From assembly GCA_029936885.1 (NCBI GenBank), contig JAPYRR010000002.1:1-61152 (forward strand): a stretch of DNA of 61,152 bases, written 5' to 3'. The stretch comes from Fidelibacterota bacterium (GTDB lineage Bacteria; Fidelibacterota; Marinisomatia; Marinisomatales; UBA1611). The notes below the pieces were generated by a model. That model saw only the letters and a list, made by a program, of their open reading frames with translations. It made no database searches and was not told the DNA's origin. Numbering within the stretch: position 1 is the stretch's first letter; each line of letters starts with the position of its first letter. A program made the position numbers and the translations under genes. Positions 21,879 to 60,093 of the stretch are shown one piece after another.

Positions 21879-22220
21879 TTATTCTAAAATAAGATGGGTA
21901 AGATTGCTTAAAATTTGGAGTTTATGATTGTGTTGGATTTCACCGAGTTTATTAATAAATCTTCGATTATCAATGGTTCGAACTTGATCGATAAGAATAT
22001 CAGAATTTTGTTTCAACCCAGCTTCACCTTTTTTCAAATGAACCCGTAATAACTTTGAATTTTGAATTACATTGCTTGTAATCGGACAAACAACAGTACT
22101 TGGATGAATATTATTCAAAAAGTTGGTTTGAACCACTACCACCGGACGGACTTTTCCTGGCTCCGTACCTTTCTTCGGATTTAAATCTGCCGTATAAACA
22201 TTGAATTTTTGGATATTCAT
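21879..22220 (-). CDS. MazF/PemK-family type II toxin (mRNA interferase)
   Basis: 113 aa with GTEPGKVRPVVVVQ and a [ILV]DQ[ILV]RT[ILV]D-like IDQVRTID block characteristic of PemK/MazF. There is a 4-nt overlap with the upstream small gene. Confidence 0.8.
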   Translation of the reverse strand: MNIQKFNVYTADLNPKKGTEPGKVRPVVVVQTNFLNNIHPSTVVCPITSNVIQNSKLLRVHLKKGEAGLKQNSDILIDQVRTIDNRRFINKLGEIQHNHKLQILSNLTHLILE

Positions 22221-31793: not shown

Positions 31794-32250
31794 ACCACGG
31801 AATACACAAAAAACACGGAATAAATTTTCATAACACATACCTTTCGTGTTCTATCTTTGGGAAATACCCAAAATTGATTAATAAGCCTAATCTCATGTTT
31901 GTTGCATTAAGATAATTAATGATTTGGTCGCGAAATTCATTATTTAATTTTGATACAGCTTTAATTTCTATAATGATTTTTTCAAAACACAAAAAGTCAG
32001 GTTTGTAAATTTTATCTAATTTTTGACCCTTGTAATTAAGTTCAACGATTTTTTGTGCATCAAAAGGAATCCCTTGAAGAGTTAATTCTTTCTCTAAACA
32101 TTCTTGATAAACTGGTTCTAAAAATCTACAACCCATTTCTTTATAGACTTCAAAACAGGCCCCGATAATTTTATAGCTTTCTTCTTTGTAGATTAGTTCA
32201 GTCATTTTAGAGCCCTTTTTTCATTTCGTGTTTTCCGTGTGTTTTGTGGT
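31794..32250. mobile_element. 457-bp insertion bounded by 27-bp imperfect inverted repeats and carrying only a GxxExxY gene
   Basis: ACCACGGAATACACAAAAAACACGGAA (31794-31820) is compared with the reverse complement of 32224-32250 (ACCACAAAACACACGGAAAACACGAAA). Identity is 21/27 in inverted orientation, exactly flanking ORF 31828..32205 inside the trp operon. Confidence 0.55.
31828..32205 (-). CDS. GxxExxY family protein (PD-(D/E)XK-like fold family)
   Basis: 125 aa with N-terminal IIGACFEVYKEMG (GxxExxY motif), D..(x)..EIKA core and C-terminal GLLINFG, all typical of this family. Confidence 0.8.
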   Translation of the reverse strand: MTELIYKEESYKIIGACFEVYKEMGCRFLEPVYQECLEKELTLQGIPFDAQKIVELNYKGQKLDKIYKPDFLCFEKIIIEIKAVSKLNNEFRDQIINYLNATNMRLGLLINFGYFPKIEHERYVL

Positions 32251-32814: not shown

Positions 32815-32899
32815 TATTTATGACCCCAGAAAAACCTTGCGACGGTTTCAAACCTTCGAAAGGATGAACTCAAAATATTCCCAGTAAAAATAAATAAAC

Positions 32900-34384
32900 T
32901 CATGCCACTAACCCATTCTCAGCAAAATCAATCGCTGCCATAATGGCTTTTGCCTTATTTACTGTTTCTTCAAATTCTTTTGTGGGGTCTGAATCATGAA
33001 CAATGCCGGCGCCAGATTGAAAATGGACCGTGCCATTTTTCATAATCATGGTTCGGATCGCAATGCACGTATTTACATTCCCGGTAAAATCAAAAAATCC
33101 CACGGCGCCGGAATAAATATCTCGGCGATCAGGTTCAAGGTCATGGATGATTTCCATGGCTCTAATTTTTGGTGCACCTGTAACAGTCCCTGCAGGAAAC
33201 CCGCTCATAAGCGCATCGAAGGGATCTTTATCCTTTGCCAATATTCCCTTCACATCAGAAACGATATGCATCACGTGGGAATAATTTTCAATCACCATAT
33301 TTTCAGGAATAGTGACCGAACCAAATTCGGCAACTCGTCCCACATCATTTCGCCCCAAATCCAAAAGCATCAAATGTTCGGCACATTCCTTTTCATCATT
33401 GATGAGATCATCAGCCAGGGCTCTGTCTTCTTCGTCAGTAAGTCCCCGTTGCCGTGTGCCGGCGATTGGGCGAATTTCCACGATCCCATCTTCCACTTTT
33501 ACCAATAATTCTGGGGACGCGCCAATAATATCAAAATCTTTAATTTTTAAATGGAACATGTAGGGTGATGGGTTGATGGTTCGTAATGCTCGATAAAGTG
33601 TTGTTGGCTCTACAGAAGTTTGTCGTTCAAATCGCTGGCTCAAGACCAATTGAAAAACGTCGCCATCCACAATATGTTCTTTTGCTTTTAGTACAGCTGA
33701 TTCGAATGTATCCTGATTAAAATTGGAAGACACTTCACTTTTTTCCACTCGGACCGGCGTTTGGTAATCCACATCAGAATGTAGAGATTCGCCAATGATA
33801 TCAATCCTGGAATGGGCTGCATCAAATTGTACTTTCAAATCTAGGTTTGAATCCACCTTTACATTGGAGATTACCAACGCCGAACCTTTCAGATGGTCAA
33901 AGGCAATCATATCTTCAAAAAGCATAAAAACTGCTTCGGGGACATCCATGGCAGAATCTGTGTGTGTAGGAATATCTTCTATCCAAGCAATGGTTTCGTA
34001 ACCGAGATAGCCCACCAACCCACCAGTGAAAGAAGGAATTTCCGGGAGTTTCACCATATTATATTGGGATTGTGTTTCCCGAAGTAAATCCAGAAAGGGC
34101 TTATCTATTTCAATGGATTTCCCATTTTCGGTGATACATGTTTGTCCGTCTTTATGAGATAATATCTTTTGCGGATTGATTCCCACATAAGAGTACCGCG
34201 CATATTGATTCCCTTTTTCTACCGACTCCAGCAAAAAGGCATATTCCGCTTTCTTGGAAAGATGAACCCACGCCGCTACCGGTGTAAGCAAATCAGCTAA
34301 TATCCGCTTATAGACGGGTACAGTCTTGGATCCGTGGGAAACCAAGTGCTTAAATTCGTCGAATGTGAGTTGTGTTTTATCCAT
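32900..34384 (-). CDS. trpE: anthranilate synthase component I
   Basis: About 494 aa with LLESV, GAPK and GAGIV motifs. I prefer ATG 34384 (MDKTQ); the track's TTG 34393 lies in the U-tract of the attenuator terminator. Confidence 0.93.
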   Translation of the reverse strand: MDKTQLTFDEFKHLVSHGSKTVPVYKRILADLLTPVAAWVHLSKKAEYAFLLESVEKGNQYARYSYVGINPQKILSHKDGQTCITENGKSIEIDKPFLDLLRETQSQYNMVKLPEIPSFTGGLVGYLGYETIAWIEDIPTHTDSAMDVPEAVFMLFEDMIAFDHLKGSALVISNVKVDSNLDLKVQFDAAHSRIDIIGESLHSDVDYQTPVRVEKSEVSSNFNQDTFESAVLKAKEHIVDGDVFQLVLSQRFERQTSVEPTTLYRALRTINPSPYMFHLKIKDFDIIGASPELLVKVEDGIVEIRPIAGTRQRGLTDEEDRALADDLINDEKECAEHLMLLDLGRNDVGRVAEFGSVTIPENMVIENYSHVMHIVSDVKGILAKDKDPFDALMSGFPAGTVTGAPKIRAMEIIHDLEPDRRDIYSGAVGFFDFTGNVNTCIAIRTMIMKNGTVHFQSGAGIVHDSDPTKEFEETVNKAKAIMAAIDFAENGLVA

Positions 34385-34391
34385 TTTGAGC

Positions 34392-34420
34392 AAAAAAAAA
34401 CCCCGAAATTATCAGGGTTT
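34392..34420 (-). terminator. attenuator terminator upstream of trpE
   Basis: The minus-strand RNA reads AAACCC(U) GAUAAUUUC (G)GGGUUU followed by a run of 9 U (34400-34392), ending 8 nt before the trpE ATG. The stem is short: 3 GC, 3 AU and a possible G-U. Confidence 0.55.
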
Positions 34421-34453
34421 AAGCATAGTCAGCATGTACAGGTATTCCTGGGA

Positions 34454-34522
34454 CTATGAAACCCCTTCGTGGCTAAAAAACCAATACCAGCTGTAATAAT
34501 TATTTGTGTTTATGTCAATCAT
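34454..34522 (-). CDS. aromatic-rich leader peptide MIDINTNNYYSWYWFFSHEGVS (trp/aromatic attenuator)
   Basis: A 22-codon ORF found by hand between chorismate mutase and trpE. Codons 9-16 are UAU UAC AGC UGG UAU UGG UUU UUU. Its last codons and stop form the 5' arm of an antiterminator that competes with the downstream terminator. Confidence 0.6.
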   Translation of the reverse strand: MIDINTNNYYSWYWFFSHEGVS

Positions 34523-34567
34523 GAGCGGGAATATTAAGGACAGGAATGAACGGGAACCAACCTTATT

Positions 34568-34837
34568 TTACTTTATCTGCAATTTTTTTGAAATATGGTA
34601 AATGGGTCCAAAAATGGCTGCGATGTCGTCTTTATCCAATTTCCCTTTAAGTTTATTAGCCAGACGATCAATGATTTCCTGTTCGCGGTTTGGGTCCCCA
34701 ACATTGATACTACCGGACGCCTTGATCTCCCCAATTTCTTTGGACACAGCGAATCGCTTTACAAGCAGATCCAACATTTGGTCATCATAATAATCAATTT
34801 TTTGGCGCAATTCTTTAATTTTGTCTTTTGGTTCCAT
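34568..34837 (-). CDS. chorismate mutase (monofunctional AroQ class)
   Basis: 89 aa with the LRQKIDYYDDQMLDLLVKRFAVSKEIGEIK pattern of AroQ-class chorismate mutases. Confidence 0.85.
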   Translation of the reverse strand: MEPKDKIKELRQKIDYYDDQMLDLLVKRFAVSKEIGEIKASGSINVGDPNREQEIIDRLANKLKGKLDKDDIAAIFGPIYHISKKLQIK

Positions 34838-40812: not shown

Positions 40813-40991
40813 GTTGAATTAAAAAAGCAATAAATAGTGCATTTGATTGGTAGGAAAATTACGAGTCTTTTTTGATTGGATTCGATTGATTAATTCCCAA
40901 TTATGACTTAAATAGAATGTCAATCTACCGTAAATTTTATACGTTTAATTGGTGAATTAAAATCAATTAGATTAAATAAATGGATTAAAAA

Positions 40992-41773
40992 GTGGAATCA
41001 AACAGTCATAAAAATATTGCCATTGTTGGTGCGGGAAATCTTGGGCAGGCACTTGCAAATGGTCTGGTTAAATCAGGCGTCTTTTCTGCCGAAAATATTA
41101 CATTAAGTCGGCGGACGACTTCAGAATTATCATCTTTCGAAGAAAATAATTTTAGAGTTACCAATCATAATTCAAAAGCCGTGGATGATAGTGATTTAAT
41201 TATTATTGCAGTTGGACCACAGGACGCAACACCCGTTTTGAATTCTATTAAGAAAAATCTGAAACCGGAAAAACAAATTCTTATTTCTACTATGACTGGT
41301 GTTTCCATAACGTCGATTCAAAAAGTTGTTGGTCAGCACATTCCAATTGTTCGGATTATGCCTAACACACTGTCTCTATTTGCGAGTCTATGACGTGCAT
41401 TGCTGCAAATGACGAACATTCCGATTCACTGGAAATTGTAAAGAATGTATTTGATAAATTGGGCAAAACATTAATTGTTAAAGAGAATTTGATTGCGCCT
41501 GCTACGGCTCTTTGTGGTTCCGGATTAGCTTTCTTTCTTCGCGCAGTTCGGGCAGCGTCTCAAGGAGGGACAGAAATTGGTTTCCATGCAGAAGAAGCAA
41601 TCTTGCTTGCAGCCCAAACAGCTCGGGGTGCTGCATCTTTGACCCTTCAATCTGAAATGCACCCGGAATCAGAAATTGATAAAGTGACCACGCCGAAAGG
41701 CATTACCATTTCCGGTTTGAATGAAATGGAGCATCAGGGATTTAGTTCAGCAATGATTCGGGCGATTGTTTGA
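40992..41773 (+). pseudogene. proC: pyrroline-5-carboxylate reductase, interrupted by a 1-nt frameshift near 41370
   Basis: Two adjacent ORFs (40992..41393 and 41390..41773) together give a full-length ProC. Frame 1 reads ..RIMPNT then nonsense; frame 2 continues VSICESMTCIAAN. Restoring one C after ACA C (41370) would give the conserved MPNTPVSI... block. Confidence 0.75.
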
Positions 41774-51881: not shown

Positions 51882-51898
51882 ATTGTGAAATTAACATT

Positions 51899-52305
51899 GA
51901 GTTGGTCGGATGGTTACTCCTGGCCTGCGTAAGCAGTCTAGGGGAGGAAAGTCCGGGCACCGCAGAACGGGATGCCCCATAATGAGGGGAGATTCGCATT
52001 AGCGAATCATGGAAAGTGCAACAGAAAGTAAACCGCTCTAGATGAGTTATGGGCTTGCCCAGAGTTTGTCGAAGAGTAAGGGTGAAAAGGTAGTGTAAGA
52101 GACTACCAGATTCTGAATAAATTCAGAATGCTTGTAAACCCCATCCGGTGCAAGATCGAATAGTCTCCGAGATGTTGTTCGCATCGTTGAAGGAGCGGGT
52201 AGATTGCTTGACTACAATGGTAACATTGTAGCTAGATGAATGACCATCCCTTTAGTTTTGAATTATTAAACTAAAGGACAGAACTCGGCTTATAGATCGA
52301 CTCAA
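51899..52305 (+). ncRNA. rnpB: RNase P RNA, bacterial type A
   Basis: Universally conserved GGAGGAAAGUCCGGGC (CR I) and ACAGAACUCGGCUUAUAG (CR V) are present. AGGGUGAAAAGGUAGUGUAAGAGACUACC is also present, and P1 pairing joins 51899-51907 to 52295-52303. Confidence 0.93.
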
Positions 52306-52319
52306 TTTTATAATATATT

Positions 52320-59829: not shown

Positions 59830-60027
59830 TTAGGCATCTTCTTCATACCAAACCGAAATTAGATGTTGTCCCGGCTCCATACTCCCTCCACAAGAAGATT
59901 GTTTTATTTCAATAACCTTTAATCCGGGATGATTTTCCATCCATGAATTTATCTCGTCTTCTAGGAGATCAGCCGTGTTGGATTTACCAAAGTATTTCCC
60001 GCCTTTAGAAAACATTTTTACTTTCAT
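59830..60027 (-). CDS. small Cse60-like (DUF2758-like) protein
   Basis: 65 aa with the pattern MKVKMF...LEDEINSW...IEIKQS...V.Y reminiscent of Cse60. Confidence 0.4.
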   Translation of the reverse strand: MKVKMFSKGGKYFGKSNTADLLEDEINSWMENHPGLKVIEIKQSSCGGSMEPGQHLISVWYEEDA

Positions 60028-60093
60028 TTTTATTTCCTTTGTTTTTGTGAACTAAATCTATGGTTTTTATTTTTATTTTTCGTCTTTTTAAAA

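Follow-up and report, generated by a model that had tools for sequence, protein, structure and literature searches.

The window analysed here is a 61,152-nucleotide (nt) stretch of contig JAPYRR010000002.1 from a Fidelibacterota bacterium; related loci place the organism in Marinimicrobia (SAR406), an uncultured marine clade. On the minus strand, a 183-nt gap separates a chorismate mutase gene from trpE, the first gene of an aromatic amino-acid supraoperon. By comparing and folding sequences from this clade, we conclude that the gap very probably encodes a ribosome-mediated (leader-peptide) transcription attenuator, which controls the supraoperon. Every structural feature of a trpL-type attenuator that was tested for is present.

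An earlier sequence-only reading of this DNA had found by hand a 22-codon open reading frame (ORF) in the gap, and both its sequence and its position agreed with our results (ATG at 34522, TAG at 34456-34454). Inside codons 9-16 (UAU UAC AGC UGG UAU UGG UUU UUU), seven of the eight consecutive codons encode Tyr, Trp, or Phe, also as that reading had it. This run is the only one of its kind among ~81,000 stop-free 8-codon windows in the six frames of the window, and its per-window probability is 6e-8 when the operon's own usage of Trp, Tyr, and Phe (6.9%) is applied. However, a 7-of-8 aromatic run appeared somewhere in the 61 kb in 17% of the composition-preserving shuffles, so composition alone is weak evidence. 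The run is regarded as non-random because of its location, directly before trpE, and because of its conservation among the related loci.

One genome scan and one metagenome scan yielded 110 such loci, which carry L numbers here, and 111 sequences were compared when the window was included. The leader ORF followed by a terminator was observed in 91 of the 111, with 52 unique peptides, and it was conserved down to about 50% TrpE identity. Those lacking it were cut-off contigs, outgroups (~40% TrpE identity), and a small number of loci whose U-tract is interrupted; the outgroup trpE loci from other phyla (37-42% identity) showed no comparable leader or terminator. The length, frame, and aromatic content of the ORF were kept across the clade, which agrees with the leader proposed from the sequence alone. 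The ORF nearly always had 22 codons (49 unique ORFs), and the mean number of aromatic codons per leader was 7.13 in frame, compared with 2.08 and 2.79 in the other two frames. The element also stayed with trpE in loci where the upstream gene is different (L012, L018, L019, and L026).

Among the 49 unique ORFs, codons 9, 10, and 12-16 were aromatic in 82-100% of cases, with Tyr and Phe exchanging for each other. Synonymous variation (TAT/TAC and TTT/TTC) was visible in the aromatic block, and codon 10 was TAT in 16 and TAC in 20 ORFs. The Tyr/Phe exchange together with the synonymous variation therefore indicates that these codons are constrained by decoding. The GGG of codon 20 and the TAG stop were nucleotide-invariant in all 49 ORFs despite a varying amino acid at codon 22 (L, S, T, I, or M), which indicates that the 3' end of the ORF is constrained as RNA. 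Judging from this alignment, the sensor block and the ORF 3' end are under different kinds of constraint.

Downstream of the ORF, the nine stem pairs of the intrinsic terminator (4 G-C, 1 G·U, and 4 A-U; about −12 kcal/mol) are followed by a U9 tract at 34400-34392. Across 28 loci, the terminator energy ranged from −11.7 to −15.3 kcal/mol, and its helix had 92.1% of cells paired with 2 compensatory pairs. The sequence-only reading had feared a weak terminator of three GC pairs and had placed the end of the U-tract 8 nt before the trpE ATG; the stem of 9 bp with U9 is stronger than that, and the spacing is 7 nt, with the ATG at 34384.

The terminator competes with a second helix. Segment 2, which contains the last three sense codons and the stop codon, pairs with GACUAUG (34430-34424) and AAACCC (34420-34415) of segment 3, at the positions given in the sequence-only reading. 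As this antiterminator shares AAACCC(U) with the terminator, the two helices are mutually exclusive. For the window leader, the minimum free energy (MFE) fold held the antiterminator and the centroid held the terminator. In individual folds, the antiterminator was found in all 28 genome-derived sequences and in 14 more from divergent or other lineages, always with the same architecture, in which a strand made up of the final 3-4 sense codons, the stop codon, and some bases beyond it pairs with the segment holding the terminator 5' arm. This pairing, which the sequence-only reading had proposed for the window, was seen in every lineage with compensatory changes. A Gly codon (GGG/GGN) supplied the G-run of the antiterminator in every folded sequence, and the stop codon lay inside segment 2 in every lineage examined.

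The helix around the stop codon occurred in at least five sequence versions, each with a matching partner: CAUAGUC:GACUAUG, UGUAGUC:GACUGC, UAGUGU:ACAUUA (L077/L079), GGGGAAAAUC:GAUUUUACCCC (L025), and UUGUUAGAUUC:GAAUCAACAA (L085). In L025, L077-L079, L085, and L022, the antiterminator helix sequence was replaced wholesale. Compensatory pairs were observed at alignment columns 66:100 (G-C in 16, A-U in 9) and 67:99 (U-A in 14, U-G in 14). For a small apical hairpin within the antiterminator loop, pairing was seen in about 84% of cells, and one pair changed in a compensatory way (C-G to U-A); this hairpin may act as an RNA polymerase pause hairpin.

RNAalifold proposed a fourth element, an anti-antiterminator, which was absent from the sequence-only reading. 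One strand of this helix is formed by codons 10-13 (CAGC..GUAU) and the other by the linker (GUAC..GCUG), which lies immediately 5' of segment 3; in addition, the codon 20 GGG pairs with CCU. During ribosome-free staged folding of the window leader, the anti-antiterminator was visible at 93-100 nt and the antiterminator at 109 nt. The MFE structure of the full-length window leader contained the anti-antiterminator and the terminator (−29.8 kcal/mol), and the naked full-length RNA had the terminator in its MFE structure in 15 of 16 lineages. Depending on the lineage, segment 2 was sequestered via the linker or paired directly with the aromatic codons. In these folding models, the four-segment logic is that of Escherichia coli trpL, and its implementation is drifting between lineages.

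The effect of a ribosome on these helices was modelled by masking, codon by codon, an assumed footprint of 28 nt (A site −15 to +12), followed by thermodynamic folding. A ribosome at codons 1-6 left the anti-antiterminator intact, and one at codons 17-23 abolished the antiterminator. Only with the mask at codons 8-16 was the anti-antiterminator blocked (P < 0.01) while the antiterminator could still form (P > 0.96). The aromatic block falls within this modelled sensing window, and according to the model the Tyr and Phe codons are placed as well as the Trp codons for sensing. The masking also agrees with the claim of the sequence-only reading that a ribosome at the UAG would hide the antiterminator arm and that a stalled one would free it.

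From these results, the following mechanism is proposed. A sigma70-like promoter would probably start transcription at the leader AUG or no more than 2 nt away from it, and a ribosome would translate the 22-codon leader while the RNA polymerase makes the next 60 nt. When charged tRNA-Trp, tRNA-Tyr, and tRNA-Phe are plentiful, the ribosome would reach the UAG and cover segment 2, so the 9-bp/U9 terminator would form and transcription would end 7 nt before trpE. With no ribosome, codons 10-13 would pair with the linker, GGG20 would be sequestered, and segment 3 would be left free for the terminator. A ribosome stalled with any of codons 8-16 in the A site would cover segment 1 and leave segment 2 free to pair with segment 3, giving read-through into trpEGDCFBA, pheA, tyrA, the 3-deoxy-D-arabino-heptulosonate 7-phosphate (DAHP) synthase gene, and the aro genes. 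Since codons 9, 10, and 12-16 encode Tyr, Tyr, Trp, Tyr, Trp, Phe, and Phe, a shortage of any aromatic aminoacyl-tRNA should raise expression.

Several results weigh against this mechanism. The MFE of the window leader was not significant against shuffles (z = −0.83), although the antiterminator segment alone was (z = −2.6). In a covariance-model alignment of 48 distinct sequences, the antiterminator had 87.9% of cells paired compared with 32-46% for partner-slid controls, 8 compensatory pairs, and 34 double-change cells against 14.2 ± 3.1, a count reached by 0 of 500 shuffles. These values support the antiterminator, but the covariation is modest because most of the sequences are close relatives, and the shuffle control ignores phylogeny. 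This alignment and per-sequence folds supplemented the MAFFT alignment, which shifts divergent sequences by one column and thereby inflates the unpaired cells. The anti-antiterminator withstood these controls too, with 92.9% of cells paired compared with 25-55% when slid, and 10 double-change cells against 3.1 ± 1.5 (0 of 500 shuffles), but it was proposed from the same alignment that was used to test it, and its partner differs between lineages. With equilibrium folding of the full-length RNA, a masked ribosome barely shifted the terminator, whose probability fell only to about 0.6 and only for codons 11-13. This folding was set aside as the wrong model, and length-staged folding was used in its place; the proposed mechanism therefore depends on kinetic, co-transcriptional folding.

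Table 1. Positions of the attenuator elements and of the first controlled gene in the window.
Feature	Position	Strand	Basis or remark
−35-like box TTGGTT	34555..34560	−	conserved in most unique upstream regions
−10-like box TAATAT, 8 nt before leader AUG	34531..34536	−	conserved position
Leader ORF, 22 codons + UAG, peptide MIDINTNNYYSWYWFFSHEGVS	34454..34522	−	sequence read; found in 91/111 loci
Aromatic block YYSWYWFF, codons 9-16, proposed sensor	34475..34498	−	conservation and frame-specific enrichment
Segment 1, CAGCUGGUAU, codons 10-13, anti-antiterminator 5' strand	34484..34493	−	RNAalifold helix
Segment 2, GGGGUUUCAUAGUC, antiterminator 5' strand	34452..34465	−	last three sense codons + UAG + 2 nt
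Apical hairpin CAGG-AAUA-CCUG within antiterminator loop	34439..34450	−	folds
Linker, CCUGUACAUGCUG, anti-antiterminator 3' strand	34430..34442	−	overlaps apical hairpin 3' half and first base of segment 3
Segment 3, GACUAUG-CUU-AAACCCU, antiterminator 3' strand	34414..34430	−	includes terminator 5' arm
Intrinsic terminator, 9-bp stem AAACCCUGA/UCGGGGUUU, 5-nt loop, U9	34392..34420	−	top-ranked minus-strand site in 18-37.5 kb
trpE, first controlled gene	32900..34384	−	Pfam; operon extends to about 18643

The genes downstream of the attenuator were assigned with Pfam. The operon begins with trpE, trpG, (PDDEXK_3), trpD, trpC, trpF, trpB, and trpA and continues with prephenate dehydratase, prephenate dehydrogenase, class-II DAHP synthase, aroA, aroE, (MazF), aroC, aroK, aroB, and aroQ. 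As the sequence-only reading had described, the operon covers the branches to Trp, Phe, and Tyr as well as the common shikimate pathway, of which all seven steps were found. The order trpEGDCFBA-prephenate dehydratase-prephenate dehydrogenase-DAHP synthase-aroA-aroE was observed in every locus with sufficient flank, L095/L019 being the sole exception, and the trpE-to-aroE order was kept down to 60% TrpE identity. Upstream of the gap, the minus-strand order is thrA-asd-thrB-thrC, followed by an 89-amino-acid CM_2 chorismate mutase (34568-34837). This chorismate mutase appears to be the last gene of the thr unit and to lie outside the attenuator control.

We consider it rather likely that the leader has its own promoter and a leaderless start. 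The sigma70-like TTGGTT-N18-TAATAT that the sequence-only reading had pointed out, as a speculative point, just upstream of the leader is present, and both its boxes and their distance to the AUG are conserved. The TAATAT box (TAATTT in one subgroup) ended 7-8 nt before the AUG in 42 of the 51 scored unique upstream regions, and the −35 variants TTGGTT, TTGGTA, TTAGTA, and TTTGCA preceded it by 16-19 nt, in most cases 17-18. Among relatives, the sequences of the spacer and discriminator between these fixed points varied, and the boxes were kept in loci where the upstream gene is not chorismate mutase (L012, L018, L026, and L078). A strong −10 box 6-9 nt from the ATG was found at only 1 of the 53 other long ORFs of the window, so a genome-wide leaderless habit is not supported. 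By the rules for E. coli RNA polymerase, the pyrimidine-rich discriminator followed by an A would fit a start at the AUG.

An attenuator that is not leaderless is an alternative that we regard as somewhat unlikely. According to this explanation, the leader would be translated from a longer read-through transcript from thrC/chorismate mutase, and the boxes would serve another purpose, e.g., an A/U-rich ribosome landing site in a genome poor in Shine-Dalgarno motifs. As these motifs are sparse in the genome, their absence before the leader is not informative. The terminator scan was negative for the stretch from chorismate mutase to the leader, which would allow transcription from upstream to read through, and the chorismate mutase stop is only 7 nt upstream of the −35 box. 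Three loci (L085, L097, and L109) have UAAAUG at the junction, where the chorismate mutase stop is immediately followed by the leader AUG, and show no good promoter. In five others (L010, L011, L053, L054, and L107), GUG is the first start codon, and this fits leaderless initiation poorly. These results count against a leaderless start, and the leader may also, or instead, be translated from a longer transcript. On the other side stand the conserved pair of hexamers, with their spacing, the variable sequence between them, and the fixed distance to the AUG, their persistence next to different upstream genes, and the rarity of the arrangement at other ORFs of the window.

The loci with the UAAAUG junction belong to the most divergent sub-clade (L085:3718-3870, L097, L109, L086, and L087; 49-60% TrpE identity), which has no clear −10 box. 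This arrangement suggests a polycistronic mRNA on which translation of the sub-clade's leader is coupled to that of chorismate mutase.

A response of the attenuator to Tyr and Phe as well as Trp is, in our judgement, fairly likely. The sequence-only reading had preferred such a multi-aromatic attenuator over a Trp-only one, and two results favour the same choice: the divergent leaders with one Trp codon and the position of all aromatic codons inside the modelled sensing window. The divergent lineages (50-75% TrpE identity) kept the aromatic block with a very different make-up: KYFFYFWYY (L085, L097), IFFFFFWYY (L109), IWGFYFYFGY (L022), IWKFYFYF (L074), EFWYYY (L079), RFWGYYWYFSFLW (L078), NFFAKYWYF (L068), and KYFWWY (L025). 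Several of these leaders have one Trp codon among 6-8 Tyr/Phe codons.

An attenuator in which only the UGG codons sense is unlikely. The Tyr and Phe codons would then be passengers, kept for the nucleotides of segment 1 or for a U-rich unstructured region. The two UGG codons are the most invariant positions in the main clade, and codons 10-13 are also the anti-antiterminator strand, so that RNA pairing constrains their nucleotides. Trp is the rarest of the three amino acids (0.6% of residues), and its tRNA is therefore the likeliest to become limiting. In the Corynebacterium glutamicum AroR leader, attenuation responded to Phe and was indifferent to Tyr in experiments despite the Tyr codon (PMC11802643); the presence of a codon therefore does not prove sensing, which is a point against multi-aromatic control. 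However, passenger codons would not readily account for the divergent lineages that keep the block with a single Trp (KYFFYFWYY, IFFFFFWYY, IWGFYFYFGY, and EFWYYY), where the nucleotide sequences are unrelated and the RNA partners are different. Nor would they readily agree with the free Tyr/Phe swaps and synonymous changes at positions that remain aromatic, or with the frame-specific enrichment. Codons 15-16 (FF) are outside segment 1 and are still 96-100% aromatic, all Tyr and Phe codons fall within the modelled sensing window, and the operon encodes the Phe and Tyr branches together with DAHP synthase.

One lineage, L095 (16392-16400) and L019, is the only one with DAHP synthase directly after trpA, and its prephenate dehydratase and prephenate dehydrogenase genes are absent from the operon. 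The leader of L095/L019, MNSMNKKNYYNWNWCFNNIGVT (block NYYNWNWCF), has Asn and Cys where other leaders have Tyr and Phe, with two positions lost. The joint loss of the two enzymes and of Tyr/Phe codons is a suggestive fit to the multi-aromatic prediction, coming from a single case.

A wider form of the multi-aromatic reading is possible and is put forward tentatively: one leaderless 22-codon peptide would integrate the charging of tRNA-Trp, tRNA-Tyr, and tRNA-Phe and act as the master transcriptional control of the entire aromatic pathway (~20 genes), from the shikimate pathway to the three terminal branches, in a streamlined phylum. If this holds, evolution would tune the leader's Trp:Tyr:Phe codon ratio to relative demand. 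The ratio is 2:3:2 here and 1:4:4 and 1:2:5 in sister lineages, with Tyr/Phe reduced in L095, where pheA and tyrA are gone.

That the hairpin and U-tract are only the terminator of the upstream thr/chorismate mutase unit, with the small ORF a chance frame in a T-rich spacer, is very improbable. No other strong terminator lies downstream of thrA-asd-thrB-thrC-chorismate mutase, and the shuffled sequences described above produced aromatic runs by chance. However, the 22-codon length, the frame-specific aromatic codons, and the stop position are conserved in 91 loci, the element persists with a different upstream gene, and the alternative helix covaries. Transcripts from the promoter-like element must cross the terminator, since the element lies on its upstream side. 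A terminator that serves the upstream unit as well can be compatible with attenuation.

A switch set by a trans factor (a TRAP-like protein, a T-box with uncharged tRNA, or a small-molecule riboswitch) in place of a translating ribosome is hardly credible: alternative hairpins alone do not identify what sets a switch, and the Bacillus protein TRAP controls a comparable aro-trp supraoperon, but no T-box or riboswitch family matched even at E ≤ 10, the leader has no array of (G/U)AG triplets, and the conserved 22-codon ORF, its frame-specific aromatics, and the stop fixed in the antiterminator strand would be left unexplained. In the Rfam search of 34300-34650, nothing reached a gathering score. 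Among the leader families at E ≤ 10, only Phe_leader RF01859 was listed (18.8 bits against a threshold of 55, E = 0.98), and Trp_leader RF00513 was not. The Phe_leader match and a PrrF match were rejected because they were terminator-driven and far below threshold.

One of the nearest known counterparts is E. coli trpL (the Yanofsky model, RF00513), which also has a short ORF with regulatory Trp codons directly before trpE and four RNA segments forming an anti-antiterminator, an antiterminator, and an intrinsic terminator. In both, the antiterminator strand is hidden by a ribosome that has reached the stop and freed by one stalled at the regulatory codons, which for the window leader is the prediction of the folding model. 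There is no sequence or covariance-model similarity between the two. Compared with trpL (14 codons, two adjacent Trp), the window leader has 22 codons with 2 Trp, 3 Tyr, and 2 Phe, and its segment 1 pairs with a loop/linker inside the antiterminator and not with segment 2. The trpL ORF follows a 5' untranslated region with a Shine-Dalgarno motif, whereas the start here is probably leaderless, and about 20 genes of all aromatic branches lie downstream here in place of 5 trp genes.

The E. coli ilvGMEDA/ilvBN and thr leaders contain codons for several end products (Ile/Val/Leu and Thr/Ile), giving multivalent attenuation. The window leader resembles them in carrying codons for several end products of a branched pathway, with different amino acids and operons. 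In the Bacillus subtilis aro-trp supraoperon, the Trp-activated RNA-binding protein TRAP binds (G/U)AG repeats and sets the switch. There too, the trp genes are within a larger aromatic supraoperon and a terminator/antiterminator switch precedes trpE; here, a translated leader is predicted and such repeats are lacking.

The C. glutamicum aroR leader (Phe-Tyr-Phe), upstream of the DAHP synthase gene aroF, works by ribosome stalling as its source summarises it (Neshat et al. 2014, via PMC11802643). It shares mixed aromatic codons and a DAHP synthase operon with the window leader, a likeness that is functional only. The aroR leader has no Trp codons, controls aroF and not a trp-phe-tyr-aro supraoperon, and belongs to another phylum. 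It was the only known mixed-aromatic attenuator that the literature search returned. The Streptomyces lividans trpL1 (MFAHSTRNWWWTAHPAAH) is an example of the leaderless leader peptides of Actinobacteria, and its transcription start site was mapped by RNA-seq (PMC8079986). Its ORF is likewise followed by hairpins and a U-rich tract before trpE, and its start codon is at the transcription start site, as we infer for the window leader. The Streptomyces leader has WWW, no Tyr/Phe block, and a monocistronic trpE, compared with the aromatic block and large operon here.

The window leader thus differs from known aromatic leaders in its three aromatic codon types, the scope of its operon, the nested segment 1, the probable leaderless start, and the phylum. 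Aromatic leaders known previously read a single amino acid each, or Phe/Tyr in the case of AroR. The literature search found no multivalent leader described for all three aromatic amino acids together and no Marinimicrobia attenuator. Vitreschak and co-workers reportedly predicted attenuators in Bacteroidetes/Chlorobi in 2004. Leader-peptide attenuation, a textbook mechanism, was long believed to be limited to Proteobacteria and Actinobacteria (PMC2965389). The present case would add an attenuator in Marinimicrobia/SAR406, a phylum that is abundant in the ocean, has no cultured members, and has next to no gene regulation described. If true, it would be the first leader that seems to read Trp, Tyr, and Phe together, in keeping with an operon for the synthesis of all three, and a leaderless design outside Actinobacteria.

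Across the clade, leaders with varied Trp:Tyr:Phe ratios on a constant scaffold form a natural series, which suits testing of codon composition against attenuator sensitivity. The short leader RNA could also report aromatic amino-acid limitation of SAR406 populations in situ via metatranscriptomes. By analogy with rnTrpL and peTrpL, which act in trans in Sinorhizobium (PMC7968998), the terminated leader RNA (about 131 nt) and the very hydrophobic peptide could act in trans.

Other leader candidates were also considered. An aromatic-rich stretch at 60013-60088 (+) was dropped because it lies in T-rich spacer DNA that separates two minus-strand genes and lacks a gene context, and FIYFYWEYFEF in the trpE-trpG gap (32898-32866, −) was dropped because its frame has no start codon. 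In the thrA upstream region (40813-41000, −), the search for a Thr leader, made to see if leader peptides have a wider use in this genome, showed no leader ORF and no terminator; the thr operon, beginning with thrA (bifunctional aspartokinase-homoserine dehydrogenase), is therefore not under leader-peptide attenuation. Two Burkholderiales outgroup loci (L028 and L029) have a small ORF, VNHKD.FSGAECGLPARRWRRWRPSLAR, located ~118 nt before trpE; its two Trp codons sit within RRWRRW, and no U-tract was detected. This ORF may be an unrelated Trp leader.

In five loci, mutually unrelated insertions of 45-150 nt were located at one spot between the U-tract (GCTCAAAAT) and the trpE ATG (L003:2927-3000, L032:9955-10000, L039:749-857, L047:9883-10000, and L068:9853-10000). 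The L003 insertion contains a duplicated AAAATGGAT and an internal inverted repeat. This spot may be a hotspot for small mobile elements, and the insertions spare the attenuator.

The operon of the window also contains genes outside the aromatic pathway. Between trpG and trpD sits a PDDEXK_3 nuclease-superfamily gene (125 amino acids, 31828-32205, −). Only some relatives carry it (L018, L031, L033, and L096) and most do not, so it has the look of a mobile or dispensable insertion within the operon. A MazF/PemK toxin gene (21879-22220, −) lies between aroE and aroC, with a ~300-nt gap up to 22517. In L095, aroE and aroC directly adjoin with no MazF gene between them, so this gene is taken as a lineage-specific toxin-antitoxin insertion, the antitoxin being presumed. 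The 85-nt trpE-trpG gap is filled by a 29-codon ORF, MSLFIFTGNILSSSFRRFETVARFFWGHK (32815-32903, −), whose ATG overlaps the trpE stop (ATGA) and whose stop overlaps the trpG start (TAATG). As trpE and trpG abut or overlap in most relatives, this gap of the window is lineage-specific. Farther away, a bacterial RNase P class A RNA (51898-52308, +; 259.7 bits) was the window's only above-threshold Rfam match.

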